A stretch of DNA of 64,000 nucleotides. Origin: a plasmid. The position numbers were made by a program, and so were the translations under genes. Each line of letters begins with the position of its first letter. Positions within the stretch are counted from its first letter, which is position 1. The stretch lies in the sequence record NZ_CP017043.1; one strand, 5' to 3'. The notes under the pieces were generated by a model. The model did no database searches. It had not been told where the DNA came from and worked only from the letters and a program-made list of their open reading frames with translations. Shown here piece by piece: positions 6,584-46,317 of the stretch.

Positions 6584-8341
6584 TCAAGCAGAGGTATCAC
6601 TCGTTTTATTTGTTGTCCGTTGCCGCACAATGCTCTGCTCTTGTGCTGCCCTCTTCTCCCGTTCTTCCTTTTCGGCCTTCTGAACGACGTAGGAGCCATA
6701 AGGGGTATTCGGATGATCCCGATCCCAATTCTGTGGCTTATACCGGGAGAGCATTGGCGATAGGTTTCTTGATTCTACGCCGTCATTCAGGAGCGCCTTT
6801 ACAATCTTAGTGTCCATCGTGATGTTATACGGGAGCCGGATGCGCCCTTCCATCTTACGTCGTTGGTATTGGTACTCTGCTTCGAAGTCTTCTCGCATCT
6901 CGGTACGAGGTATCACAACATAGCGGCTCAGTTTTTCATTTTCTCTTACAAGCTCCTGGTCTGCAAGCTTCTGGATATATGCGAAATAATCCGCGCCGCC
7001 GAATATTTGATTGGGCGAATGATTCATCATTGCCTCCCTGATCTGATCCGGCGTATACTGGCCGCCCAGCACAAGCTCTTTCATGGCCGCAATGTCCATG
7101 TCCGGATTCACAAAGTCTTTCTCTATGTACTGACGGTGCATTGCATCCATATATGCAGCTGCGCAGGAACCTAGATCATTCACATCAAACATCGCGATTG
7201 CATCTTCTCTTGAAAGTGCCTCCTGCGCCTGTGCCAAGATCAACGCTGCGTATTCGGTGGAATCCGGAAGTGCAGCAGCAATCGCCAGAGCGATCAGATA
7301 CCGTTTCACAATATCTGTACGAACACGGCTCCGCAGCATTCTGGCCGCCGTGCGGCCGTCTGGAGAACGAGACTGTCCTTTGATATTGGTATACGCATCA
7401 TCGTCTCGCTGATGCAGCCCAAGGCTCTCACACGCACAGAGGAAAGTTTCGTCAAGGTAGGTCTCTCTGCTGCGCCCGGGTTCGATATAAAGGGGAGACG
7501 CCTGAGCAATGGACTTTCGGAGAATCGGCTGCACCTGCTCCTTGAGTAAAAACATCATACGCGCTGGATCTTTCTGATAAGCAGTCCGCTCGTCCTGAAG
7601 ACGGCGCATATAGTCCCGATAGATCGCCTCGATGATCTTCTGCTCATCGTCAATGGTGAGCACAGTTGTATTTGTCCTCTCCATATACTCCCTGGCGAAT
7701 TTTCGGTAAACATCTGCTTCGCTGCTCATGACACCGCCGGCATACGCCATGATTGCAGCATAGCGATTGTGTCCATCGGACAGCGCAGAAAAAAGCGTCT
7801 GAAAATAGGATTCATCGGCCTTCCGCTCGTTGGCAGACTGCCGAATTACCTGATTCACAACAGCGATCGGAAAGCCGTCTTTCAAGATCATGGCCATGCC
7901 AATACGATAATCCCGCTGAAGTCCCGCAGCTTCTGATTCTGCCGCTGCGCGCCGCCGATAACTTTCCGCCGCTTCGAGATATGTACGCGATGCACGCTCC
8001 GCCCACGCTTCATTGATGTTCTCCATGACTTTTCCGGTATAAAGCGCCATTGCGCGTACATCCGGAAGCAGTTTGGTCATGGGCGATTTTTCGCAGATCA
8101 CAGATCTCACGGCATCGACATCATATCCGCTTTCCAAAAGCCGGATTGCGGCCGTCAGATCGTTCTCGTAGTTCTCTGCCTGTTGATTGGGAAATTCGGC
8201 AGTATTCTCCTTTTTGCGCTCAACCATTGTTTGTCCGAGCACATCAAGATATGCAACTGTAATATTTTTCATTCGTTGCTCTCTCTCGTATTTCTGTGGC
8301 AGCTTGTAGCATAACGGCATGTGCGCGCCGTGTAGTTTCAT
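6584..8341 (-). CDS. Conserved hypothetical protein of conjugative elements (585 aa; start possibly at an internal Met, MKNITVAYLDV, ~8272)
   Basis: Long ORF with protein-like composition, located between the giant MTase/helicase gene and T4SS block 1. No recognisable catalytic motif. Confidence 0.5.
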   Translation of the reverse strand: MKLHGAHMPLCYKLPQKYEREQRMKNITVAYLDVLGQTMVERKKENTAEFPNQQAENYENDLTAAIRLLESGYDVDAVRSVICEKSPMTKLLPDVRAMALYTGKVMENINEAWAERASRTYLEAAESYRRRAAAESEAAGLQRDYRIGMAMILKDGFPIAVVNQVIRQSANERKADESYFQTLFSALSDGHNRYAAIMAYAGGVMSSEADVYRKFAREYMERTNTTVLTIDDEQKIIEAIYRDYMRRLQDERTAYQKDPARMMFLLKEQVQPILRKSIAQASPLYIEPGRSRETYLDETFLCACESLGLHQRDDDAYTNIKGQSRSPDGRTAARMLRSRVRTDIVKRYLIALAIAAALPDSTEYAALILAQAQEALSREDAIAMFDVNDLGSCAAAYMDAMHRQYIEKDFVNPDMDIAAMKELVLGGQYTPDQIREAMMNHSPNQIFGGADYFAYIQKLADQELVRENEKLSRYVVIPRTEMREDFEAEYQYQRRKMEGRIRLPYNITMDTKIVKALLNDGVESRNLSPMLSRYKPQNWDRDHPNTPYGSYVVQKAEKEEREKRAAQEQSIVRQRTTNKTSDTSA

Positions 8342-13333: not shown

Positions 13334-14293
13334 TCAAGTTACTTCATGATAAATGTACTTTTTCGAGGCCGGATCCCAGCGCTCAAGTTCGAGTATTTCC
13401 TGCACTTTTCGCGTCTTCCCAATGTATTTGAGATAGACGATATAGTGTACCGCCTGGGCGATCGTTGCCTGCTGCGGGTTCCGAGAGACACGCGCCGTCA
13501 TGTTCTCAAGGCGAAGAAGCGTATCCACGGCAGAATTGCTGTGAACCGTTGAGCAGCCTCCCCCATGCCCCGTAGACCAGGCATCGAGGAGCGCCAACGC
13601 TTCACCAGAACGAACTTCTCCAACCACAATGCGATCCGGCGTCATACGCAGCACCTGCTTGAGGCAATCCTCCATGGAAAATGTTGGTGTTGCACGCATC
13701 TGCACGCAGTCAACGGCGCTGCATTGCAGCTCTGGGGTATCCTCAATCAGGATGACACGATCATCCAGCTTGGAGATCTCGGCCAAGATGGCATTGAGAA
13801 ATGTTGTCTTGCCGGATTTTGTTCCCCCGGCCGCAATGATATTCTTCTTGTGATGGATAGCGTCGATCAGGAAATCATATTGTTTTTCCGTCAGCGTCCC
13901 CTGTTCAACATAGTTCTCCAGCGAAAATATGGTCTCAGGGTGCTTCCGAATATTGAGGGTTGGTGCAGAAACGATATTGGGAAGATTCCCTTCAAAGCGG
14001 CATTTGGGGAAAAACGAGTTGGACGGAATGTCCGCATCAAGGGCAGGACGCTCCGATACGACCAGCTGCCCTGTCAGCGCAGCCACATTGAGAATGATCC
14101 CGCGCGTATCTTCCGGGGAAATATTTTTCCCCGTATAAGCTCTCCCCTTGCCAAGACTGTCCGTCCAGATCTTGCCGTCCGGATTCACATATACCTCGAA
14201 GACGTTTTTATCCTGCATAAACGGCATGATCGCTTTCATCGAGGTAATGAGCGCATCCATTGTGATGTTATACCGCTCACTATTGCTGTTCAT
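13334..14293 (-). CDS. virB11: VirB11/TrbB-family secretion ATPase (319 aa)
   Basis: Walker A AAGGTKSGKTTFLNA, an IEDTPEL box, and a His-box region (STGHGG). Confidence 0.8.
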   Translation of the reverse strand: MNSNSERYNITMDALITSMKAIMPFMQDKNVFEVYVNPDGKIWTDSLGKGRAYTGKNISPEDTRGIILNVAALTGQLVVSERPALDADIPSNSFFPKCRFEGNLPNIVSAPTLNIRKHPETIFSLENYVEQGTLTEKQYDFLIDAIHHKKNIIAAGGTKSGKTTFLNAILAEISKLDDRVILIEDTPELQCSAVDCVQMRATPTFSMEDCLKQVLRMTPDRIVVGEVRSGEALALLDAWSTGHGGGCSTVHSNSAVDTLLRLENMTARVSRNPQQATIAQAVHYIVYLKYIGKTRKVQEILELERWDPASKKYIYHEVT

Positions 14294-17193
14294 TCTTCGT
14301 TACGCTCCTTGTTCATTGTCCCTAAAAAGGCATCCAAGCCTAACAGTGGGCTGCTGCCGTTGGTCGTATCCCCCGCTTCTTCGGTGTCTGCATCGAAAAG
14401 ATCAAGATCATCGTCCATATCCAGCTCCTCCGGCGCAGCCTCGTCAAAGTCCTCCTGATCGCCAAAAAGGAAATTGGAAAGCTGTATGTCGCTGTTCTCC
14501 CCTTCTGAGGCCGCAGCTTCCTCTGCGTCCGCATTGACGGCAAGAATGGAGGCATCCAGATCAATGAGATCTGATACGGCATCTGCGGGAGACGGCGTTT
14601 CTTCATGCACCTGCAGGATGTTCATACGCCTTTTTGCCTTGCTCTCCATCTCTTCCTGGATGGCCGATTGATGAGTGTCTTCAACCGCTGCCTGATACCG
14701 ACGATTTTCGGGGTCTACCTCTTGCGGACTTTCTGTCCGTGTCCGATGATCGGCGGCTGCTTCACTTTCGATATTTTCGGGCTGGCCGACAGGTTCTTCT
14801 TGCCCTGCTGCTGCAATCCCTGCGCTGGAGATCTCTTGCTCATTCAGCTCCTCCTCGGGGTGTTCCCCTGTAATGCGGAAAATCACATCCTTTTCGTATT
14901 GCGCCTTCTCCGCCTCGAGTTTTTGGACATAATCCTTATACGACATTCCGGCTTTGTTCGCCTGATCCTCAAGAACCCGCTTCCGATCATCCTCTTTCGC
15001 GGCCTGATCGGCTGCATGGACATCGAACAGCTCCTTGAAATTCGTGACGCGTGTCACGGTATCACTCACCGCCGGACATTTTATCTGTGTCCGTTTGATG
15101 AGGAACGGATACTCATAATAACGCAGCTTGTCTCCAAAGATGGCTTTATGCCCGGCCACAAAGACGAGTTCTTTCTCTGAACTCATCTGGGCGACTTCAT
15201 CCGGCGTCAAGAGTTCTCGGCCGGTCTGCGACGTAGAGTTTGAGCCCTTGAAAAAGCCGCCGCCCCCGTCGCTGTGCGAGATGGTCGATATTGTGCGTTT
15301 GCCAAGCGTCTTTGAAATTGCCTCGGCCGTTGCACCGCCGGAGTCGATATTAGGGGTAAAATAGATATGCACATGACAGTTTGAGCCGATGGAGTTGTCT
15401 TTGGTGTACTCCTTGTTGAGCTGGTTGACATCCTGGCAGACGATGCAGACTTTGATTCCATAGCCCGCACAGATGGCAAGCGCAAGCTCTATGCACTTCA
15501 TATTGCCTAACTGCGGAAACTCATCCAACATGAGCAGAAGGCGCTGCTTCTTTGGCGCGGGTTTATTGGGATCCGTGTCAAATTTCATGTCCCGTATGAG
15601 CTTCGAACAGATCATCTGGATGAAGAGACGTGCAATCGGCTTGACGGCCGCAATATCTTTGACCTCCATGCAGAGATACAGCGATACTTCCTGCTGCGGA
15701 TCGAGCAGGTCGCGAATCGCAAAATCCGATACGCTTGTGTTGTTTTGCACGACCGGATCCTGATAGATCGCCAAAGAGGTTTGTGCGGTCTGCATAATCG
15801 AGGCCGTAGTCTGCTGCGCACCATTCAGAATGTTGGCCGCGCATTCGGCCACCTTCGGATGGGACAACAGCAGATGATATGGCGCATTGGTTGGCAGCCC
15901 CGTCTGATCTACTGCCTCCCACTGGATTTTCTCCCCTTTTTTGATCTTCTGCTGCAGCGCAACGCGGATCTCATCAATGGATTTTACCTTGGTATCGAGT
16001 GCCTGGGCAAAGGGGCGAAAATCCTTGATATATTCCCCGTAGATTTCCTTGAGCGGATTCTTTTTGCGTTTCACAATCCCATTTTCATCAAGAATGGGCT
16101 TCCCGTCGGCGCCGATCTCTTCCACTTCCAGGAATTCATCCGGGCTGATATGCGGATAATCACGCATATCCGTAAAAAGCTCTTCCGTTGACTTATCCGG
16201 ACTGGAGAGAAATGACATAATGTCCGTCGGACACGGGAGCGGCCGCTCCTCTCTATCATGTTTATAAAGCAAGTGCAGGATAACGCCGTTCAGGAGAGCT
16301 GCAGCCGAGTTCGGCCAAAACTCATCGCCGCCCTTTGATTCTCCATCCGGGCGCACCATGACCGAAACGATAGACTGAACGTCCGATAACTCCTCGCTCG
16401 TACGATAATTGACCTCGGCCAGTGGGTTCCACCGTGCTGCGGATCCATCCGTGCAGAGCGGCTGAAACTTGAGTACCTTCTGCTTCAGGACGTTCTTCCG
16501 ATAGCCGCTGGTCAGGCTCCAGAGTTCGCCCTTCGGATCGAAAAAGAAGATACTGTGCTTCCAGATCAATCCCGTGGGGATGATCGTGCAGACGCCCTTA
16601 CCGCTGCGGGTCGGAGCCATGAGAAGCATATGCTCCACGCCGTCATGCAGCATGAGCTTATGGGTATATGGATTGATACCGACAACAACGCCGGAATCCT
16701 TGATGATCTTCTCCTTTTTGGTGTAAGGGATCAATCCAAGGAATCTCTTCTTTGTTTTCCTATACTCGTATACGCCCCCGTTTTTCGAGACGTAAGCGCC
16801 GAGATCCGATTTTTCGATGTCCTTGCTCGACGCAAAAGAAGCGCTGCCATGTGATGTCTGCACCAAAAACGCCTTTTTGAGGAAATACATGCAGACCATG
16901 GAGAGCAGCAAAACCAGCTGGGCAAATGACGAGTACGCATCGAGAATATCCGGAATTGCCTTACTGATATGCTCATCATATGACCACACCAGGTAATCAT
17001 ACGGAGGATAAATTTTACTGCCGCCGAGCTCTATATAACTTCCGAGCAAGGGATGATAGTCACACTCCTCTGCTACCGCCTGTGTCGCATACCATTGCGT
17101 TATCAGCATCAAAACAGCGAAAATGAGCACCGTATAAAGAAACGCCTTCTTTTGTGCTGTACGATGAATCTCTTCATCTATCATCTCAATCAC
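14290..17193 (-). CDS. virD4: Type IV coupling protein VirD4/TraG family (967 aa) with acidic C-terminal tail
   Basis: N-terminal TM helices. Motifs MAPTRSGKGVCTIIPTGL, FFFDPKGELW, RWNPL and LLLMLDEFPQLG. The long D/E-rich C-terminal extension is typical of T4CPs. Confidence 0.85.
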   Translation of the reverse strand: MIEMIDEEIHRTAQKKAFLYTVLIFAVLMLITQWYATQAVAEECDYHPLLGSYIELGGSKIYPPYDYLVWSYDEHISKAIPDILDAYSSFAQLVLLLSMVCMYFLKKAFLVQTSHGSASFASSKDIEKSDLGAYVSKNGGVYEYRKTKKRFLGLIPYTKKEKIIKDSGVVVGINPYTHKLMLHDGVEHMLLMAPTRSGKGVCTIIPTGLIWKHSIFFFDPKGELWSLTSGYRKNVLKQKVLKFQPLCTDGSAARWNPLAEVNYRTSEELSDVQSIVSVMVRPDGESKGGDEFWPNSAAALLNGVILHLLYKHDREERPLPCPTDIMSFLSSPDKSTEELFTDMRDYPHISPDEFLEVEEIGADGKPILDENGIVKRKKNPLKEIYGEYIKDFRPFAQALDTKVKSIDEIRVALQQKIKKGEKIQWEAVDQTGLPTNAPYHLLLSHPKVAECAANILNGAQQTTASIMQTAQTSLAIYQDPVVQNNTSVSDFAIRDLLDPQQEVSLYLCMEVKDIAAVKPIARLFIQMICSKLIRDMKFDTDPNKPAPKKQRLLLMLDEFPQLGNMKCIELALAICAGYGIKVCIVCQDVNQLNKEYTKDNSIGSNCHVHIYFTPNIDSGGATAEAISKTLGKRTISTISHSDGGGGFFKGSNSTSQTGRELLTPDEVAQMSSEKELVFVAGHKAIFGDKLRYYEYPFLIKRTQIKCPAVSDTVTRVTNFKELFDVHAADQAAKEDDRKRVLEDQANKAGMSYKDYVQKLEAEKAQYEKDVIFRITGEHPEEELNEQEISSAGIAAAGQEEPVGQPENIESEAAADHRTRTESPQEVDPENRRYQAAVEDTHQSAIQEEMESKAKRRMNILQVHEETPSPADAVSDLIDLDASILAVNADAEEAAASEGENSDIQLSNFLFGDQEDFDEAAPEELDMDDDLDLFDADTEEAGDTTNGSSPLLGLDAFLGTMNKERNEE

Positions 17194-27747: not shown

Positions 27748-28308
27748 TTATTCGAGCTCTATTTCTCTTGACTTCGCAATGGACTTCATTTCCTTAAAGT
27801 AATCTATAAGAGCAAAATATTTCCTTCGCATCAGTCGTTTGTCTACCGAATCTGCTGGGTAACGCTCATCAATATGCGACATGAAATCTTCCAGAGATCT
27901 TTCAACACCGTCTCCACATTGAACAATATTGCGATCTACAAAATAGCGTATGTCTGACGGAAGGCCTGCATATCCAAGAGATATAATTTGTACGATGTTT
28001 TCGCTTGAATTTGTTAAATCATTTAAGTCAGCATGATGTAATATTGCTCCATCGAGCTTTGCATTTGATATATCCGCACCTCGAAGATCTGCATAGGATA
28101 AATCTGCATCACGTAAGTCGGCAAATTGTAATTGAGCACCATATAAATCTGCTCCGCCGAGATCCGCGCGCCGCAAATCTATGCCGCGAAGTTTAGCATG
28201 ACGTAAGCAAGCTCCACCAAGAAATGCGTTCTGCAGGTTACAGTGCGATAAATTCACCCTTTCCAAATCTGCACGTTGCCCCCTTCTTCCGAGAAAGCCC
28301 ATTTCCAA
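27748..28308 (-). CDS. Pentapeptide-repeat protein (186 aa)
   Basis: Tandem A(D/N)LxxA(D/N)Lxx repeats (ADLGGADLYGAQLQFADLRDADLSYADLRGADISNAKL). Confidence 0.8.
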   Translation of the reverse strand: MEMGFLGRRGQRADLERVNLSHCNLQNAFLGGACLRHAKLRGIDLRRADLGGADLYGAQLQFADLRDADLSYADLRGADISNAKLDGAILHHADLNDLTNSSENIVQIISLGYAGLPSDIRYFVDRNIVQCGDGVERSLEDFMSHIDERYPADSVDKRLMRRKYFALIDYFKEMKSIAKSREIELE

Positions 28309-28566
28309 TGCAAGTCAAGAATATTTTTCAGTTGATCTTGTGTCAGCTTTCTTCCTTTTCTAAAAGATGGCTTTTTATTTCTCATCACAATGCTCCTCCT
28401 AAACGAGAGAGAAAACGGTCATCCTTCTGATATTTAACGCCGGATATATAAACAGACGTATCATCTTTACTGCCTCGACTTTAGAAGAAACATCATTCCC
28501 CAGCCCATGATGCCAAGCAAAGCAACAACGACACGAGGGGCGGTGGACTCCACCCAAGCATTCAGA

Positions 28567-28773
28567 TCAACAACAATCATCACAGGATTCTCCTAAGTCC
28601 TCGACCACCTGAATTTCCATAAAATCAGATTCAAAACAGGAACAGGATTGTTCCACAAGTTCATGGAGATTATCAAGATTCTCCACCTTCTCACGCGCCT
28701 CATCTTCATCCTCCGCCTCGATCACGATCTCACCGGACAGATCATAAGAAAACGCAACCATGAATTTTCTCAT
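28567..28773 (-). CDS. Small acidic protein (68 aa, MRKFMVAFSYDL...)
   Basis: The ATGA start overlaps the stop of the DUF4406 gene remnant, mirroring the gene coupling seen at 32832. Acidic helical protein with a Cys-rich C-terminus. Confidence 0.45.
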   Translation of the reverse strand: MRKFMVAFSYDLSGEIVIEAEDEDEAREKVENLDNLHELVEQSCSCFESDFMEIQVVEDLGESCDDCC

Positions 28774-28852
28774 ACGATGACCTCCTCTCGTGGTTCGTAT
28801 ATGATTTCCTTGCCAAGTTGTGCTCCCAGTTTTGGAGTACATAGATGGCATC
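28771..28852 (-). pseudogene. 3' remnant of a second DUF4406 (nucleoside 2-deoxyribosyltransferase-like) gene
   Basis: Its nucleotide sequence matches the 3' end of the DUF4406 gene at 32832-32980 (gatgccatctatgt...ggaaatcatatacgaaccacgagagg) with an internal deletion. It ends where direct repeat DR1 begins. Confidence 0.55.
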
Positions 28853-28924
28853 CGCTTCGCGTCATCGCCGTTGTGATGCGAAGATACGCATCCCATTCCA
28901 GACCGCTCTACAAGAAACTCTATA
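28849..28924. repeat. 76-bp direct repeat, copy 1
   Basis: catccgcttcgcgtcatcgccgttgtgatgcgaagatacgcatcccattccagaccgctctacaagaaactctat is identical at 30446-30521. Confidence 0.9.
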
Positions 28925-29077
28925 ATGCTTTGTGTGCGGGTGATTGGCGCGGTGCATTACAATCGCTGCGGGATCATGGTCTATGGCGACATCGACGCTC
29001 CGTCCGACGGCACACGCAATACCGCTTGAAGCACCGCCGCCACCCGCAAAAACATCAACGATGATCTCATTCAGCAT
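28862..29077 (-). pseudogene. Truncated DNA cytosine-5 methyltransferase (N-terminal ~50 aa with motif I, fused to repeat-encoded tail)
   Basis: IVDVFAGGGGASSGIACAVG...VAIDHDPAAIVMHRANHP is C5-MTase motif I and surroundings. The reading frame then runs into DR1 and stops, so the catalytic PC motif and the rest are missing. Confidence 0.6.
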
Positions 29078-29435
29078 TTTCTAATTCCTCGAAATAGAAC
29101 CTGATCGGCCGGTGCGCTTTATCGGTCTCTGTGATTACCCCATATTGCATGGCTATGTGAAAGATAAAAACCTTCTCCAGACGCTCCAATACGGTTCCGA
29201 CATATTCGCGAAACTGCTCAATATCAAGCGTGCTTTTATAGTAATTGCATTTCCTGCACGCAGGTTTGTAGTTGGAGAGAGCGTTCTCTCCCCCTTTACG
29301 CAAAGGATAGACATGATCTACCCGCATTTTTTGGATGTTATCAATCTTTCTCCCACAGTACGCGCAGCGTCCCCCATACATTTCATAAACTTGACAGCGT
29401 ACCTGCTGAGAAATGCGTTTTCTCTTCGTCTGCAT
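29067..29435 (-). CDS. HNH endonuclease (122 aa)
   Basis: CAYCGRKID...DHVYPLRKGGENALSNYKPACRKCN is a canonical HNH zinc-finger nuclease motif. Confidence 0.8.
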   Translation of the reverse strand: MQTKRKRISQQVRCQVYEMYGGRCAYCGRKIDNIQKMRVDHVYPLRKGGENALSNYKPACRKCNYYKSTLDIEQFREYVGTVLERLEKVFIFHIAMQYGVITETDKAHRPIRFYFEELENAE

Positions 29436-29486
29436 TTCAACGCCTCCAAATCGACAACAACAGCAGTCTCAATCGCCGCTGTGGCG

Positions 29487-30395
29487 CTACGCAATATAAT
29501 CCTCAAAGCGATCGCAGCTACGGAAGATGATTTTATTATTCACCCATCTCTGCAAACGTCGAGCGGTCACAGGAGCGTTGGGTTTATCGTAGACCATAAT
29601 ATATGGATCATACGCATGATCTTTGAGCCAGTAGACGCGCGCCAGGTCTTCCTCGTGCGTGCTCCAATAATTGACAAGCACATATACGCGCCTCTTCCGG
29701 AAATCTGTGACAGATGTGCGTTTTGCAAAGGCAGATAACGCTCTAGGAACGCTCCAATCCTTTGGATTATCCCATGCAAAATGCAGCATTTTCACTTTAC
29801 AGGCGCTGAGGAGATCCATATTTTCCGGTGTGAACAGTCGCGCGTCGAGACCTTGCGTAAAATCAATCCATGCGCCGCTATGAGCAAGCTGTTCTAAAAG
29901 TTCCATATGCTCTTTTGCCGCCAAAATATTGGGATCAAGCAGCTTGATTATGCGTTCCCCATGCCAAAATTCATTGAGATCCGCGACTTTGTGACTTTCA
30001 TAACCTTCTTTCCAGCCAACGATGCAAAAGGGACATGCACGCGGGCAACCTCTCGTCAGAAAGCCATAAGCAATTCCTTGAATGTTATAGAGCGAATAAT
30101 CCGGACGCATATGTTCAATATGCGCCGGAAGCTGTGCGGCGCTGGTAGTTCCCGTCCCTCCGATTTCTGCACCAATCTCCGCAAGGCGTATGGAAAGCCC
30201 TTGATTCTGCGTAAACACACAGGCTGCATAAAGTTTTTCATATGGCTGAAACAAATTATTCCCCAACAGGACATCTTCAGGATAAAGCAGATGAACCTGG
30301 TCGCCCTGTTTCTTATGCCACGCCGACAGCTTCATCAGGCACAAATTGGGGAATTTCCCACCATCTACGTCAATAAGGCCAATAGTCATCGCCAT
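29487..30395 (-). CDS. Radical SAM enzyme with Rossmann/B12-binding-like N-terminal domain (302 aa)
   Basis: The cluster CPRACPFC (CxxxCxxC) lies ~118 aa in. The N-terminal region IGLIDVDGGKFPNLCLMKLSAWHKKQGDQV resembles the cobalamin-binding domain of class B radical SAM enzymes. Confidence 0.7.
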   Translation of the reverse strand: MAMTIGLIDVDGGKFPNLCLMKLSAWHKKQGDQVHLLYPEDVLLGNNLFQPYEKLYAACVFTQNQGLSIRLAEIGAEIGGTGTTSAAQLPAHIEHMRPDYSLYNIQGIAYGFLTRGCPRACPFCIVGWKEGYESHKVADLNEFWHGERIIKLLDPNILAAKEHMELLEQLAHSGAWIDFTQGLDARLFTPENMDLLSACKVKMLHFAWDNPKDWSVPRALSAFAKRTSVTDFRKRRVYVLVNYWSTHEEDLARVYWLKDHAYDPYIMVYDKPNAPVTARRLQRWVNNKIIFRSCDRFEDYIA

Positions 30396-30445
30396 CTTTC
30401 ACTTCTTCCACACTCTGAACTTCTATGAACGATGAAGAAAAACAG

Positions 30446-30521
30446 ACATCCGCTTCGCGTCATCGCCGTTGTGATGCGAAGATACGCATCCCATTCCAGA
30501 CCGCTCTACAAGAAACTCTAT
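30446..30521. repeat. 76-bp direct repeat, copy 2
   Basis: Identical to 28849-28924. It overlaps the stop of the 117-aa ORF. Confidence 0.9.
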
Positions 30522-30871
30522 ACCTCAGAATTGATCTCGTAGATGTTTCGGTAAAAATTGTTATTCTCGTCCCGTGTTTGAATTCGGGTAATATATCCAC
30601 AATCCACCAGCTGCTTCATATACTTCGCATAGGTATTCTTGTTGATGTTAAGGTCATAGCAAATCTGATCTCTGGGGAGACAATCCGTATCGCCATATGC
30701 GCAGAGATAAGAGTAAATTGTCTTTGCAATCACATGTAAGTTTGGATCCTGCATGACAGATGTGCCGACTATGCCAGCACCGTGTTCAAGCACATTTCTG
30801 GGATGTTGTCTGATACGTTCTTCCGTCACCTGCATATTAGAGTCTTGTATGTTGCTCATGATGACCTCCAA
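30518..30871 (-). CDS. Hypothetical protein (117 aa)
   Basis: ORF with protein-like composition, in the operon downstream of the VirD4-like gene. Confidence 0.4.
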   Translation of the reverse strand: MEVIMSNIQDSNMQVTEERIRQHPRNVLEHGAGIVGTSVMQDPNLHVIAKTIYSYLCAYGDTDCLPRDQICYDLNINKNTYAKYMKQLVDCGYITRIQTRDENNNFYRNIYEINSEV

Positions 30872-30921: not shown

Positions 30922-31176
30922 CTACTCGTTCATCGCATCTACAAGCCATTGAGGAGCAAGAACATTTTTTCCATCATGGTCAAATAAGACTTGATATGTT
31001 ACAAAGAATTCTTCTGCCGCCTCTTCAGTGTAATGTTCTTCTGCCAACTCTCCATCTTCAGGACAAAGCGTTTTCCAAAAAGAACTTTCGAGAAGTTGTT
31101 TTATGGCAGTGTCTCTTGCCCCAAAGCCAATACGATAATACGGATAAAGCACGCGAGCATTTCCCATAACGTTCAC
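30922..31176 (-). CDS. Hypothetical protein (84 aa)
   Basis: ORF in the operon. Confidence 0.35.
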   Translation of the reverse strand: MNVMGNARVLYPYYRIGFGARDTAIKQLLESSFWKTLCPEDGELAEEHYTEEAAEEFFVTYQVLFDHDGKNVLAPQWLVDAMNE

Positions 31177-31224
31177 CGCTTTCTCGATTTATCAATCATC
31201 TGCCGTAAAAACATTTTTACCTTT

Positions 31225-32835
31225 TTAGATACTATGACCATGAATGATCTCACTTCGCTCAGGAGCTTCATACATGCGCGAGAGAAAATAATCGTTCTCC
31301 TGATATTGAACACCAGCCACATCAACACTTCGGGTATCCATAATAATCGAGTATTTGTTCTTTTTACCGAGGATAGAAATCACCTGCATATCTGTCTTGC
31401 ATCCATAAAATTTACAAGTCTGTAACAGCTCATCAAACAAAACAGCCTTCATCCCGCATAAAGAAATATAATTCAGCCCAGGGTATTCAAATATATTTAG
31501 GCGACCTAAAGACGTACACTCATCCATTAGAATCAAGCATCTGTATCTCCCTTTCATTGGCTCTCCCTTATATCCAAATATCCAGAGCATTTCCAAGAAC
31601 ACACGAAAAATTTGGGATGGTTGGCAAGAATTACCCGGTGGAGTCACCAGATACAAAGATACGGGCTGCGTGTGATTCATAAGATCTTTTATACAGAAAT
31701 CACTTCTTTCCGTATGGTGTCTAAGCACTGGATCAAGATAATCTTTGAGTGCTGCATTTATGATGGACAGAATATAACACGCCTGATTATTCGGTATTGA
31801 CACGATTCCGTGAAGTTTATGGTCAATAATTTTTTGTACCTTTTCCGGTTCCTCTAAAGATATATATGGATACTCCAAGGGTGTATCATATATTTTCCAA
31901 TCCAAAGGCATCCAGGCATAAACAGGAGCTCCGTCTTTATCGACCATTCCAACCGTATGATCCTGTATATATTGAGCAACATCATAAAGAGATAGAGACT
32001 TTGGATGCCGATCTTGATCAGCGTGATATGTATTTTTGAGATGCAGGATGATTTTCGTAAGAACATCGGCAACTTCTTCTACAACGTCATCACATACCAT
32101 CATTTTCCCCATCCGGATCAAGGCCGACGAAAGCGTCTTTGCTACAAATAGCTTGTCAGGGCTGTCCATCCGTATCTCGTCAAGAGGATTCCAGCACGCA
32201 GATGTATCATCTGTTGCTGTCGGCTCGAATTTGATTATCGTGTTCCCGAGCCGCTTTCGATAACCTGCGGTGACTTCCCAGTATTCGCCTTTAATATCAT
32301 GCACGACTACACTAGATTTCCAACCGTCAAGGAGCGTCGGGATGATAAATCGATCGCTTCGTCTGTGATTCGACTCACCCTCAATCAATATATGATTACT
32401 GGAATTATCTCGTAAATATAGGGGCATAGGGTTCATGTGGCGTTCGACAAACCAATTATATGCTGCTGTCCTTTTATCCGCAGGAAGTATCTTAGTTAAT
32501 GGGGGCACTACGCCACTAAGAATTGTGTCATACTGGCCAATTACAACACCTTCATCAGAGATCAGTCCCATCTTGGCATATTTTTTATAACTTCCCTGCT
32601 TATTCCCGTCCTCATATTTTTTACAGAAATGTATAAGTATCGCAGTCAATAAACTAAACGCAACAAATGGTGTAATTAGACCGATCAAGGCAACATCTTC
32701 TGATACTGTAAAATTAAGAATCAGCACTACAATGCTGCAAAACGTCAATCCCAAGACGCTGAGCTTAACGGTAAACACAGCCGTTATAAGCATGAGAAAA
32801 AAGCAGAAAACAGTCCATAAATCAATATGTATCAT
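31225..32835 (-). CDS. VirD4/TraG-like coupling-protein paralog with degenerate Walker A (536 aa)
   Basis: Three N-terminal TM helices. IIPTLLDGWKSSVVVHDIKGEYWEVTAGYRKRL...CWNPLDEI and LILMDECTSLG align with the 967-aa VirD4 (TIIPTGLIWKHSIFFFDPKGELWSLTSGYRKNV...RWNPLAEV, LLLMLDEFPQLG). The P-loop position reads EGESNHRRSDRF instead of APTRSGKG. The ATGA start overlaps the DUF4406 gene. Confidence 0.65.
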   Translation of the reverse strand: MIHIDLWTVFCFFLMLITAVFTVKLSVLGLTFCSIVVLILNFTVSEDVALIGLITPFVAFSLLTAILIHFCKKYEDGNKQGSYKKYAKMGLISDEGVVIGQYDTILSGVVPPLTKILPADKRTAAYNWFVERHMNPMPLYLRDNSSNHILIEGESNHRRSDRFIIPTLLDGWKSSVVVHDIKGEYWEVTAGYRKRLGNTIIKFEPTATDDTSACWNPLDEIRMDSPDKLFVAKTLSSALIRMGKMMVCDDVVEEVADVLTKIILHLKNTYHADQDRHPKSLSLYDVAQYIQDHTVGMVDKDGAPVYAWMPLDWKIYDTPLEYPYISLEEPEKVQKIIDHKLHGIVSIPNNQACYILSIINAALKDYLDPVLRHHTERSDFCIKDLMNHTQPVSLYLVTPPGNSCQPSQIFRVFLEMLWIFGYKGEPMKGRYRCLILMDECTSLGRLNIFEYPGLNYISLCGMKAVLFDELLQTCKFYGCKTDMQVISILGKKNKYSIIMDTRSVDVAGVQYQENDYFLSRMYEAPERSEIIHGHSI

Positions 32836-33188
32836 ACGATCACTACCTCTCTCGGCTCATATATAATCTCCTTTCCAAGCTGCTCTGCAAGAGCAAGTTC
32901 CTCCCGAACGCCTCTGCTGTTCTCCCAGTTCTGCAGCACATAGATGGCATCGGCGCAGCGCACCATCTCCTTGGTGATCTGCAAATAGGCCTCCCATTCC
33001 ATTCCCCACGGCAATACCGCAGGGTTCAGAACGATACTGTCTTGCTCTTGCAGCCGCTGTTCTGCCACGGCAAATATCTGCTTATAGTCAGCAATACCAG
33101 TGATTGCCCCAGCAATGAAAACAATTTTTCCCTCAAGATTCATTTTTACTGTCCTCCATGTCGAAATGGTCTCCAAATCTACAATCAC
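32832..33188 (-). CDS. DUF4406 / nucleoside 2-deoxyribosyltransferase-like protein (118 aa)
   Basis: KIVFIAGAITGIADYKQIFAVAEQRLQEQDSIVLNPAVL...CADAIYVLQNWENSRGVREELALAEQLGKEI matches the DUF4406 pattern (YisGPmtG...vvNP...cDaiymLpgWexSxGA.xE). Confidence 0.6.
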   Translation of the reverse strand: MIVDLETISTWRTVKMNLEGKIVFIAGAITGIADYKQIFAVAEQRLQEQDSIVLNPAVLPWGMEWEAYLQITKEMVRCADAIYVLQNWENSRGVREELALAEQLGKEIIYEPREVVIV

Positions 33189-43256: not shown

Positions 43257-46235
43257 ATGGCTTTATATCATTTTACGGTCAAAAATGACAAGCGCCCCAA
43301 GACAAAGACACAGATTCCGGCCGTCGAACATTCCGACTATATTAACCGCGAGGGAAAATATAAAAATGCAGATGAACGCCAGCCGCAAAGCATGGATAAT
43401 GTTATATCCTCAAATCGCAAACTGGATGCGATCGACGGACGAACCGTTTTGCTTTATTCCAGTCCATATGGAAAAATCACCAATACGGAAAAAGGGATTG
43501 CAGTCACGGATGATCCATCCTATGACACAATCTCAATGGCGCTCATGGTAGCAAAAGAGACCATGGACGAGCCTCTGAGCGTGAATGGCAGTCTTGCCTT
43601 CAAAGCAAAATGTATCCATGCTGCTGTTTTGGCCGATCTGCCAATTACCTTCAAAGATTCAAATATGCAGAGCGTCCTCGACAAGAAGCGAAAGGAGAAA
43701 CAGGATGAGCGAGAACGATTTAGAGAACAAGGTGGACGAGTTATCATCCGCAAGAACATTCCAAAGCCCGACATTGACGAAAATCAGCGTGGAAATGCCG
43801 AGACTGTTACCATCGGAACCTTACCCACAATGCGTCAACTGCCCAAACTCCCTGTGGATGGCACTCGATCAGAGGACGCTGCGTTGCTGGTGTCAAGTGA
43901 TGAGAGTGGTCAGCTGGGACACGACGGAGACACACGCAATCCCCCTGTGCGATGGGATCTATCTGACGGACGAGAACAGTACGCTCGAAGAACCGCAAGA
44001 CGAATCCTAGACAACATCGAAAGCAACATGGATGCGATATACGCACAGCGCCATGTTGAGTACATCAACCGAGAAAAAGCATTTTCGGAGCGCGGCGATT
44101 GCGTCTATAAGCAGCACCATCTTCCCAAATGGGCGAAGGATTCGCCCAGCGTCTTTTTTCGAGCAGCAGACCGTTACTCTCCAAAAAACGCAGCACGATA
44201 TAAGGAGCTCGAATTTGCTCTGCAAAACGAATTGACCTTGGAGCAAAACCTAGAGATTGTGAATAGATTCATCCAAGAGAACCTGCCGGATCATTACTAT
44301 ACGCTCGCCGTACATGATAAAATCGGCGCGATGTCTGACGGGACACATAATCTTCATGTTCATCTGGTGTTCTCCACCCGTCTGATTGACGAAGTAGAAA
44401 AAAAGAAAGAGCGGAAGCGATCCGCTTACTTTCGCTATCCGCTGCGTGATAATGTAAAGGAAAAAACCGAAGATGCGATGCGCAGCCATGGAGCGCCTAT
44501 CGACCGCAAATGGTCAGATCGCACCTACGTCCCACATTTGCGGGCATCTTATGAAGAAATCGTAAACTCTGTACTAGAGAGATATGGATACAGCGCAAGA
44601 ATAGACCATCGCAGCCTAAAAGCGCAAGAACAGGAAGCCCGCATGAATGGGGATATTGTTCTTGCCAATCTCTTGCACCGTATCCCGGAGGAGCACATCA
44701 GCAAGCACGGTGTGCTTGAGGAGAGCAATCCGCAGGTGCAGCGGATTAAGAAATACCGCATCCACAAGAAAGAGTATCAAGATTTACTGTTTGCGGCCGA
44801 ACTTGTCGCCCACGGCATAGAGGAGGATGAGCGAAAAGAGAAGACGGGACGGCTCAAGAAAAATATCAAAGCGGTCGTATCATCGAACGAGTTCATCGAA
44901 AGTGAAAACGACGCCAATTCACATATTGGCGAACTCCGAGACAGCTTCGTTGAAGCCGTCCATGCACATGAGCACTTACAGCGGATGCTGGTGTCTGCCG
45001 AGGATGCACGCGAAAACGCAAAACTCGAGTATATGACGCCGGAGGAGAAAGAAACCTATCAAGCGTATAAGAAGCTTCTGTCGGACATCCAGCGTTGGAC
45101 AGATTTTAAGGAAAACCTGTCAGAACCTAAAAATCCGACAAACGAAGAGCTAGCTGCATATCGGCAGCTATTGCCCGCGCTCGATGAAAAGCTGTCGAAC
45201 CTCCAGCAGGAAAAAGCCCTGCTTCAGGACAAAATAGATGAACTGGAAATTCGATTGCAGAATACAGATATACAGAAACAGATTCAGCTCATCACGCACA
45301 AGACGCTGCAGGCCAATGTCAAAATACGCAAAGAGCTGGCGAAGGCCGAGCAAAACCTGGAAATATCCATACGCGCGCTGGAGCAAGGCTTATTCTCGGA
45401 AACACACGCTGAAAATCAGCAAGACACCTATACAACGCATCAGCTCTATTCCATCATACGAAAGCGATTTTACGGCTATAAGAAGGAAGTGGAGCGACTG
45501 CAAAAACAGCTGGACGCAGCAAAAAAGAAGGTCTTGTCTATGGATCGCGCATTACAGATGGCAAGCAACATCTACACAAAGGGCGGTCTGAAAAAACTGC
45601 GCGAGGATCTGCGCAGCCTGAAAAAGAAGGAAGGCTACCTGCAAAGCGATCAGGCGAAACTAGAGCAAGACATCGCAGCGTTTCGCAAGCTGCCGACGCC
45701 GCCCTCTACGGATCGCGACCTGTACGCAGAATATCAAGAACGGTACAGCGCCCTCGCCTCACGGCGTGACGAGCTGAATCAACGGATCCATGACCTGGCA
45801 AATCAAAAAATCGAGCTGGAGCAGCGGAAGAAACGACTGGCCGCTCAGATCGACTCGCCGCAAGGGAAGGCCAAAATCAAAGATATTGCGCTTGGTATCA
45901 TGAAGAAAAATGCTCCCTATCAAGAGCAATATGATACGCTGCAGGGACGCCTGGAACGAGCAACAGGAAAAATGAACCGTGCAAAGGTGCAAATGGAGGC
46001 GCTGGCCAAAGCGGTACAAAAAGATAAGGGCAACACACAGCGTTATAAAGTAGCTGCACCCGTAAAAGCCAAAGACATGCCTAGCATTATCGCCGAAGCA
46101 GTGTCCGGAAACTCACACTATGCGAGTTTGGTCGCAACGATGCGGGATGATAATAGGGCGCTAAAGACGTGGACGCTCATGTCCGAGGCTGCCAAGGCAG
46201 AAGAGGCAAATAAAAGATACTACCAAGATCTATAA
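43257..46235 (+). CDS. MobA/MobL-family (MOBQ) conjugative relaxase with long coiled-coil C-terminal domain (992 aa)
   Basis: N-terminal MALYHFTVKNDKRPKTKTQIPAVEHSDYINREGKY (catalytic Tyr motif). HUH-type motif GTHNLHVHLVFSTR. A ~500-aa helical, Q/E/K-rich C-terminus. Confidence 0.75.
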   Translation: MALYHFTVKNDKRPKTKTQIPAVEHSDYINREGKYKNADERQPQSMDNVISSNRKLDAIDGRTVLLYSSPYGKITNTEKGIAVTDDPSYDTISMALMVAKETMDEPLSVNGSLAFKAKCIHAAVLADLPITFKDSNMQSVLDKKRKEKQDERERFREQGGRVIIRKNIPKPDIDENQRGNAETVTIGTLPTMRQLPKLPVDGTRSEDAALLVSSDESGQLGHDGDTRNPPVRWDLSDGREQYARRTARRILDNIESNMDAIYAQRHVEYINREKAFSERGDCVYKQHHLPKWAKDSPSVFFRAADRYSPKNAARYKELEFALQNELTLEQNLEIVNRFIQENLPDHYYTLAVHDKIGAMSDGTHNLHVHLVFSTRLIDEVEKKKERKRSAYFRYPLRDNVKEKTEDAMRSHGAPIDRKWSDRTYVPHLRASYEEIVNSVLERYGYSARIDHRSLKAQEQEARMNGDIVLANLLHRIPEEHISKHGVLEESNPQVQRIKKYRIHKKEYQDLLFAAELVAHGIEEDERKEKTGRLKKNIKAVVSSNEFIESENDANSHIGELRDSFVEAVHAHEHLQRMLVSAEDARENAKLEYMTPEEKETYQAYKKLLSDIQRWTDFKENLSEPKNPTNEELAAYRQLLPALDEKLSNLQQEKALLQDKIDELEIRLQNTDIQKQIQLITHKTLQANVKIRKELAKAEQNLEISIRALEQGLFSETHAENQQDTYTTHQLYSIIRKRFYGYKKEVERLQKQLDAAKKKVLSMDRALQMASNIYTKGGLKKLREDLRSLKKKEGYLQSDQAKLEQDIAAFRKLPTPPSTDRDLYAEYQERYSALASRRDELNQRIHDLANQKIELEQRKKRLAAQIDSPQGKAKIKDIALGIMKKNAPYQEQYDTLQGRLERATGKMNRAKVQMEALAKAVQKDKGNTQRYKVAAPVKAKDMPSIIAEAVSGNSHYASLVATMRDDNRALKTWTLMSEAAKAEEANKRYYQDL

Positions 46236-46237
46236 GC

Positions 46238-46272
46238 GAACACAAAAAGAAGCTCTCCATCGAAGAGCTTCT
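46238..46272. terminator. Bidirectional intrinsic terminator
   Basis: aaaaAGAAGCTCTccatcgaAGAGCTTCTttttat. Confidence 0.6.
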
Positions 46273-46317
46273 TTTTATATCCAGCAATACGTAAGCTATG
46301 CTTTGTGTAATGAAATT

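Follow-up and report, generated by a model that had tools for sequence, protein, structure and literature searches.

The window analysed here, a 64,000-nucleotide stretch of plasmid record NZ_CP017043.1, carries between two perfect copies of a 76-bp direct repeat a compact cassette of 1.6 kb. This block consists of the tail of a small open reading frame (ORF), a gene for a radical S-adenosylmethionine (SAM) protein, a gene for an HNH endonuclease and the 5' end, 52 codons long, of a C5 DNA methyltransferase gene. We propose that it was spliced into the variable region of a conjugative element by sloppy recombination and that the 76-bp repeat is the local duplication that resulted. Taken as a whole, this is the best explanation of the locus, and we consider it probable.

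The repeat (CATCCGC...CTCTATA) occurs exactly twice in the window, as copy A (28849-28924) and copy B (30447-30522). The two copies are 100% identical, their number stays at two when zero to three mismatches are allowed, and no repeat of 76 nt is expected by chance (100 shuffles). A preliminary description of this DNA had reported such a perfect direct repeat, and it is there, with copy B lying 1 nt further to the right than had been thought. The 20 loci of the same arrangement that we fetched, from separate samples and about 15 distinct contigs, all carry the two copies with 100% identity to the repeat.

The composition of the repeat reveals its local origin. On the minus strand, which carries all genes of the cassette region, repeat nt 17-76 and the 79 nt beyond copy A jointly form the 3' part of a DUF4406 gene. 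This combined sequence shows 95-97% identity, over 62-92 nt, with intact DUF4406 genes of six metagenome contigs (L117-L122), where the repeat core is present once each as DUF4406 coding sequence, and 75-86% identical to the window's own intact DUF4406 paralogue (32832-33188, minus strand). The window's second DUF4406 copy (28770-28908, minus strand; phmmer E=1e-8), whose upstream part is repeat nt 17-76, has lost its 5' half as well as 1 nt at one place and about 37 nt at another, and is thus a pseudogene. Its stop overlaps the start (ATGA) of a gene for a 68-aa DpnD/PcfM-like protein (28567-28773, minus strand), the natural partner of DUF4406 in relatives; the order in L033/L036 is DUF4406-68aa-37aa. 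The first 16 nt of the repeat (TATAGAGTTTCTTGTA) are not DUF4406. They match the sequence 3' of the stop codon of the helix-turn-helix (HTH) gene HTH_36 in L029, a related backbone in which HTH_36 is followed directly by an M23 peptidase gene and which has neither the cassette nor the DpnD and pentapeptide genes; the alignment of the repeat to this flank spans nt 1-27. Copy B thereby starts as the native 3' flank of HTH_36, whose TAG stop codon lies inside it, and continues at nt 17-76 as DUF4406 interior. Judged by its sequence, the repeat holds an older junction, in which an HTH flank is fused to the interior of DUF4406, and because both copies carry this junction, the duplication is the younger event.

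A perfect direct repeat that bounds a discrete gene block could also be the terminus of a mobile element, such as a miniature inverted-repeat transposable element (MITE), an attachment (att) site or the end of an insertion sequence (IS), or else an artefact of assembly. The preliminary description had suggested looking for att-like or MITE-like occurrences of the repeat. We tested these possibilities and rejected them on copy number, on the DUF4406 origin of the repeat and on its recurrence across contigs; together they appear extremely improbable. The 64 kb hold two copies only, and elsewhere the core is found once per contig, inside intact DUF4406 genes. Folding of the repeat gave no significant secondary structure (z = -1.1), promoter and terminator scans gave no signal above background, and there were no inverted repeats of note. 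The nearest integrase lies 6 kb away, on the opposite strand. The hallmarks of a MITE, an IS or an att island, namely copies at other loci, terminal inverted repeats and an adjoining recombinase, are missing here. Nor is the arrangement an assembly artefact, because both perfect copies recur, identically arranged, in the ~15 distinct contigs from separate samples. Several of the fetched loci bear contig names beginning with k141_, which we take to denote MEGAHIT assembly with k=141, longer than the repeat.

Both joints of the cassette can be read at the nucleotide level. At the upstream end, the small ORF that overlaps the start of the radical SAM gene is intact in L033 (59 aa, ...DEADVYFSSSFIEVQSVEEVKDGDDYWPY). 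In the window it is cut exactly where its GAAGCTGATG comes close to the repeat's final 10 nt, GAAGCGGATG, which amounts to a 9/10-nt microhomology, GAAGC(G/T)GATG. What remains of it is a leader of 51 nt (30396-30446, minus strand), about 17 codons that run into the radical SAM gene. At the far end, the joint between the methylase stub and copy A falls at the codon for Tyr52, TAT. Here CAT-TAT|AGAG on the methylase side (the bar marks the joint) faces GTA-TAG-AG on the side of the HTH gene, with TAT/TA in common, a microhomology of 2-3 nt.

From this anatomy, which is observed, we infer how the cassette was joined. Before the event, the site would have consisted of the HTH gene, its 16-nt flank, the 5'-truncated DUF4406 pseudogene and the 68-aa gene, and in its empty state would read CTGAGGTATAGAG...GCGGATGCCATCTATG. 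The cassette would have been joined after nt 76 of this local stretch, at the GAAGC(G/T)GATG microhomology, and its far end (methylase Tyr52, TAT) would have been rejoined to nt 1 of the same 76-nt stretch. Because the point of re-entry lies 76 nt upstream of the point of exit, two such microhomology joints yield an insertion flanked by the duplicated local 76 nt. The event would thus be an illegitimate recombination by template switching or break-induced replication, and neither transposition nor site-specific integration. Structurally, it is an ordinary recombination scar, one more instance of a familiar type of event.

The cassette is not confined to this site. The block 30456-28924 is 98.4% identical to L033/L036, where it lies between Dam-59aa and 59aa-DUF3990-SLT-TrbL, and the block 30389-28983 is 98.0% identical to L030, where it lies between a gene resembling the type IV coupling protein (T4CP) and an HTH gene; the backbone blocks of the same elements are only 73-92% identical in their aligned parts. 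The cassette is therefore found at three sites, after the HTH gene in the window, in L030 and in L033/L036, and the repeat flanks it at neither of the other two. Given that the same cassette, at about 98% nucleotide identity, occupies other positions in related VirB-type elements, it moves by recombination. The cassette-type recombination event that the preliminary description had postulated is borne out. A blastn search of the 2.9-kb region against PLSDB and INPHARED returned only matches of about 150 nt to the methylase N-terminus and no related element. Paralogous radical SAM genes occur elsewhere in relatives, right after the relaxase gene (L011-L016) or right after DUF4406 (L126-L128). 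In L011-L016 (4750-5903) an 88-aa ORF and a paralogue, 70-84% identical, come straight after the MobA/MobL relaxase gene; the post-relaxase position of the window (46235-46318) holds nothing.

Could the repeat instead be the cause of the insertion? In a Campbell-type event, a circular or episomal cassette carrying the 76-bp segment would have integrated at a resident 76-bp segment by RecA-dependent homologous recombination, with the repeat as the substrate of the crossover, and could loop out again via the repeat. The perfect identity of both copies in every related locus and the presence of the cassette at several sites would agree with this, as would the homologous exchange seen among these genes: the protein P0004 is a recombinant, identical to the window radical SAM protein in its C-terminal half and of another type in its N-terminal half. 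However, such an event presupposes an earlier molecule whose cassette was already joined to the repeat segment at both ends, and this only places the illegitimate joints one step further back. Moreover, at the two other sites the cassette is flanked neither by this segment nor by any repeat, and the excised or empty form was not found in a scan restricted to JGI metagenomes. We consider a Campbell-type origin unlikely.

Several observations also count against the sloppy recombination that we favour. The empty site (HTH gene, repeat and DUF4406 tail without the cassette) gave 0 matches in that single JGI-only pattern scan, which is weak evidence because most related contigs sit in ENA; since it was not found, the pre-insertion state is a reconstruction. 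The direction of the duplication, with copy B as the original and copy A as the derivative, rests on the short and diverged flank in L029. Finally, the methylase stubs of the window, of L033 and of the far more distant L126 end at one codon, within 2 nt, a coincidence not expected from simple random illegitimate recombination.

This coincidence draws attention to the methylase remnant. The stub ORF (28862-29077, minus strand) comprises the first 52 codons of a C5 methyltransferase (MLNEIIVDVFAGGGGAS...HPHTKHY; 28922-29077), then 19 codons within copy A, and a stop at 28862. Motif I (VFAGGGGAS) is present and the stub matches the full-length enzymes of L137/L141 with a phmmer E=1e-23; by blastn it shares about 70% nucleotide identity with annotated DNA cytosine methyltransferase genes. 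The catalytic motif IV (PCQ), motifs VI/VIII, the target-recognition domain and motif X are all missing, as the ORF departs from the PF00145 family beyond codon 52 and stops at codon 71. Full-length relatives in IMG/VR have 417-662 aa and continue HY|CE(S/D)VWDVDP...SP, and one full-length relative is annotated on a conjugative plasmid of E. faecalis, beside dam, ssb and a thermonuclease gene. With motif I only, the stub is a dead, non-functional remnant. The preliminary description had correctly noted methylase start codons between the copies and a frame terminated by the repeat, but called the gene decapitated, when the head (motif I) is kept and the body lost. It had also supposed that the insertion destroyed a restriction-modification (R-M) or DNA-modification gene. 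A methylase has indeed been destroyed, but it was not a resident target gene: the stub travels with the cassette, and the same stub is found at three sites. With the seed sequences used, the window yielded no further methylase.

Methylase genes of these cassettes are broken in more than one way. In L030, codons 1-32 continue in frame into the final 48 codons (GNAVPP, motif X), and in L033 the methylase stops at ...KH|W. Side by side, the stub ends read ...AAGCATTAT|AGAG in the window (28922-28924), ...AAGCATT|GGCA in L033 (~7152-7156) and ...AAGCATTAT|AAGG in L126 (3801-3810). The L126 stub is 74% identical to that of the window at the nucleotide level, with proportions of synonymous and non-synonymous differences of 0.73 (pS) and 0.12 (pN); as change is mostly synonymous, the L126 stub was under coding constraint until recently. 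We asked whether breaks occur at the HTKHY codons throughout the methylase family, as at a hotspot, and rejected this: 0 of 59 viral homologues end there, and the coincidence is confined to cassettes linked to the radical SAM gene. One idea is that a site-specific break by the nuclease encoded just upstream could explain truncations at the same codon.

Decay of C5 genes is also seen outside the cassette. In Selenomonas-type elements, a Dcm-like C5 methylase gene 3' of the radical SAM gene is broken into ORFs that are overlapping or split, at 6346-7882 in L017 (129+435 aa) and at 4917-6360 in L190 (128+86+231 aa); C5 methylases adjoining this radical SAM gene seem to decay repeatedly. In a protein homologue search for the full-length methylase, only short proteins were returned; the candidates were apparently length-matched, and the search is silent on intact alleles. 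It brought up many mini C5 methylases of 54-140 aa across bacteria (P0283-P0397; L030 1539-1781), in which motif I is fused to the C-terminal motif X. One example, a 96-aa protein of Klebsiella aerogenes UCI 28, occurs on 51 contigs. With the same proviso about length matching, these proteins suggest recurrent in-frame internal deletion of C5 genes.

Upstream of the stub lies the HNH gene (29067-29435, minus strand; 122 aa), which starts behind a GGAGG ribosome-binding site. That a canonical HNH nuclease is encoded between the copies, as first described, is clear: the ORF scores 41.4 bits against Pfam HNH (PF01844; cut-off 21.4), with matches to HNH_5 and phrog_2118 as well and to PDB 4h9d (E=6e-8), and contains the HNH motif with its flanking CxxC pairs (CAYCG ... 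DHVYP ... N ... CRKCN). The gene is intact, and its ratio of non-synonymous to synonymous rates (dN/dS) of 0.06-0.18 indicates purifying selection. The HNH genes of L030 and L033 are called at 142 aa, and we considered a damaging frameshift (a 1-nt deletion near 29443) as the reason for the difference. We rejected it: all of them have the ATG with its GGAGG, and the extra length of the 142-aa calls comes from a TTG start that lies within the radical SAM gene.

The distribution of the HNH gene is patchy. It was found near radical SAM family genes in only 3 of 80 genome loci. L190 and L017 share a backbone (ParA-ParB-...-radical SAM-C5 methylase-helicase-N6/N4 methylase-DUF4406), and the distance from the radical SAM stop to the methylase start is 23 nt in L190 vs 455 nt in L017; the extra DNA is exactly the HNH ORF. 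In L126, an MmcB-like nuclease (phrog_5429/14517) that is unrelated to HNH occupies the same slot, and in L137 the radical SAM gene is coupled directly to a full-length methylase gene with no HNH gene between. Because of these presence/absence and replacement polymorphisms, the HNH gene is most likely a selfish, free-standing homing endonuclease gene, residing in the spacer of a once-coupled radical SAM/methylase pair. The T-even phages offer the familiar picture, in which mob and seg homing genes are inserted between conserved genes. As with such phage genes, a small HNH ORF sits in the spacer between coupled genes, present or absent, patchily distributed and with the nuclease swapped; unlike them, it is carried here by conjugative elements, and it is a homing candidate by its sequence pattern. 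A separate comparison concerns the radical SAM genes themselves: the one beside the HNH insertion (L017 4950-5893 vs L190 3950-4893) forms the most diverged block (76%) of backbones that are otherwise 81-88% identical, which would fit co-conversion around a homing endonuclease gene.

The preliminary description had seen in HNH and radical SAM a pair of unknown function, possibly a module for DNA hypermodification or modification-dependent restriction, and a broader version of this idea would make them, originally together with the methylase, one defence or DNA-modification module, for R-M or modification-dependent restriction, crippled by the repeat-bracketed event. The three genes do lie close together in the window, L017, L030 and L033, their ends overlapping, and radical SAM genes recur beside DNA-modifying genes. 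However, HNH is missing from 77 of 80 radical SAM loci and from the otherwise collinear L190, an unrelated nuclease replaces it in L126, and the radical SAM protein has no PADLOC match. Furthermore, there are at least three ways in which the methylase was destroyed, with HNH remaining intact and constrained, which would be lethal for a classical R-M pair. An active methylase paired with a nuclease, as in Type II restriction-modification, is not found here, the methylase being truncated in the window and differently so in L030 and L033. A single module therefore appears quite improbable, and HNH and the radical SAM protein are probably not a functional pair.

The radical SAM gene (29487-30395, minus strand) encodes, as had been noticed at first sight, a protein of 302 aa with the motif C116-P-R-A-C120-P-F-C123 (CPRACPFC). 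The Cys triad and many other residues are invariant in 33 homologues, and the gene is intact and under purifying selection (dN/dS 0.18-0.32). Profile searches gave a full-length match to phrog_9298 (E=6e-90), a sub-threshold match to Pfam Radical_SAM PF04055 (19.2 bits, E=1.4e-3; cut-off 29.5), for which some homologues carry a precomputed match, and no NCBIfam model. In the AF2 model (pLDDT 92.3), a Rossmann-type, B12-domain-like N-terminal half is followed by a partial-barrel radical SAM half, and the top Foldseek matches are all radical SAM enzymes (probability 1.00), the best in the PDB being AprD4, CysS and TokK (E 4e-5 to 5e-4, TMq 0.55-0.61). The N-terminal half is thus cobalamin-domain-like, as had been supposed; no cobalamin-binding motif could be read from the sequence. 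The protein resembles class B radical SAM enzymes and AprD4 (PDB 6fd2; CysS 9n1b; TokK 7kdy) in that its model, which superposes on AprD4, CysS and TokK, has an N-terminal Rossmann-type, B12-domain-like half followed by a CX3CX2C barrel. It differs from them in size (302 aa vs 450-660 aa, with no C-terminal domain), in sequence (11-13% identity) and in context, since theirs is natural-product clusters and its own is mobile elements and DNA methylases. AprD4 itself is non-methylating and does not use cobalamin.

The family is very large, with more than 8000 word-sharing homologues and 2562 clusters at 50% identity. It has representatives in Clostridium, Bacteroides, Oscillospiraceae and archaeal viruses as well as on plasmids of Bacteroides, of the Geobacter group and of alphaproteobacteria. 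The closest genome matches of the window gene are in Selenomonas noxia and Selenomonas metagenome-assembled genomes (71%), followed by more distant ones (~52-55%) in Lachnospiraceae and Oscillospiraceae. Members of phrog_9298 (Clostridium phage phiCT453B gp19, Bacteroides LoVEphage) belong to the same family, the phiCT453B protein being 52% identical to ours. Whereas those are phage genes, the window gene belongs to a conjugative element; the family is named without an assigned function.

What could such a protein do on mobile elements? Its neighbours offer a hint. Of 62 scored cases, 20 have a gene for a VirB4-like ATPase directly upstream, often overlapping by 4 nt, and 41 of 80 genome loci have a VirB4-like gene no more than 3.5 kb away. 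Across these same 80 loci, a DNA methylase is an immediate neighbour in 22 cases, and at least 34 loci have a methylase or Mom-like gene at a distance of up to 3.5 kb, a count that leaves out the L041 upstream gene as a seed, as this has no methylase domain, and that becomes 38/80 with it. In some loci the coupling is tight: the radical SAM gene overlaps a full-length 513-aa FAGGGGAS-type C5 methylase gene by 4 nt in L137, lies 14 nt from a C5 methylase start in L190, is two genes away from a 444-aa C5 methylase on a phage contig and overlaps a DNA methyltransferase gene in the Oscillospiraceae phage NatCom_21982. In Oscillospiraceae elements, a gene for a Mom-like protein (phrog_1384, E=6.5e-32) overlaps the radical SAM 3' end by 58 nt (L047 6597-7181, L048/L050 6851-7435). 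Because the gene is recurrently operonic with C5, N6/N4 and Mom-like DNA-modifying genes, guilt by association raises the possibility, the likeliest we see but one on which we remain rather doubtful, that the protein is a DNA-directed modification or anti-restriction enzyme expressed for the element's own protection. The same neighbourhoods lend circumstantial support to the DNA hypermodification suggested in the preliminary description. There is precedent on a mobile element for radical SAM chemistry in post-replication base modification, as gp53 of phage M6 is a radical SAM isomerase whose substrate is N-alpha-GlyT carried in DNA (PMC8989533). It serves as an analogy only: gp53 is spore-photoproduct-lyase (SPL)-like and works in a 5-hydroxymethyldeoxyuridine (5-hmdU) pathway, whereas the window protein is not SPL-like by fold search and has no 5-hmdU genes nearby. 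Orphan DNA methyltransferases, for their part, occur in the establishment or leading regions of conjugative plasmids (PMC11541004). The full-length relatives of the stub, C5 methylases of 417-662 aa on phages and plasmids, are comparable to these; the window, unlike them, keeps 52 codons, and methylase activity is impossible.

A DNA-directed role has to contend with what was found and what was not. We found no experiment and no characterised homologue that links the radical SAM family to DNA, and in the literature on conjugation, anti-defence and DNA modification no characterisation of the family. PADLOC, like NCBIfam, has no model for the protein. And the radical SAM gene has been kept in the window in spite of its dead partner methylase.

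We can also imagine, as a long shot, that the radical SAM gene and its coupled C5 (or N6/N4, or Mom-like) gene carry out a two-step, oxygen-free hypermodification. The methylase or other enzyme would mark a base, and the B12-domain-like radical SAM protein would elaborate the mark by radical chemistry, as a gut-anaerobe counterpart of the O2-dependent TET/JBP-type enzymes of aerobic phages. A nuclease interposed between the pair (HNH, or the MmcB-like one in L126) would cut site-specifically, which would account for independent methylase losses at codon 52.

The surroundings of the cassette are those of a conjugative element. The window represents a VirB-type conjugative plasmid or integrative and conjugative element (ICE), with genes for VirB4, VirB11, a full T4CP, VirB10/9/8-like proteins and TrbL/VirB6-like proteins, and it further carries genes for a MobA/MobL relaxase, topoisomerase III, a ParM-like protein and a tyrosine integrase. 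The full T4CP (14290-17193, minus strand; 967 aa, TraG-D_C domain) is one of two coupling-protein genes; the shorter (31225-32835, minus strand; 536 aa, T4SS-DNA_transf), which resembles the coupling protein of type IV secretion systems (T4SS), lies near the cassette. In minus-strand order, the intact DUF4406 gene precedes this T4SS coupling-protein-like gene, which is followed by an 84-aa ORF, HTH_36, copy B, the 51-nt leader and the radical SAM gene. Next come HNH, the methylase stub ORF, copy A, the DUF4406 pseudogene tail and the 68-aa DpnD/PcfM-like gene, and beyond it a pentapeptide-repeat gene, the M23 peptidase gene and the rest of the element.

HTH_36 (30518-30871, minus strand) encodes a small DnaD-like protein of 113-117 aa (Pfam HTH_36 E=8e-6), with PHROG matches to replication-initiator and DnaD-like families. 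The exact 113-aa protein (30518-30859) is found on one other contig, L029, which is without the cassette, and the cassette contigs L001-L028 have slightly different HTH_36 alleles. Around 31000-31400 the backbone is a mosaic, with 4-8% divergence there vs less than 1% elsewhere. The pentapeptide-repeat gene (27748-28388, minus strand) is split into ORFs of 44 and 186 aa, as it is in L006/L025, while most relatives have a single 212-aa gene; the split is probably a frameshift.

The repeat is thus a textbook case of the shuffling of accessory genes among conjugative elements by microhomology-mediated joins, for which no new mechanism is needed. The wider interest lies with the radical SAM family, proteins of about 300 aa that are spread over phages, plasmids and ICEs of Bacillota, Bacteroidota and Proteobacteria and over archaeal viruses, and this family is the one lead worth an experiment. 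If the radical SAM protein acts on DNA, it would represent a widespread oxygen-free modification or anti-restriction activity of gut mobile elements. In that case the cassette, in which the radical SAM gene was kept and the methylase lost, would show that it can act without its cognate methylase.

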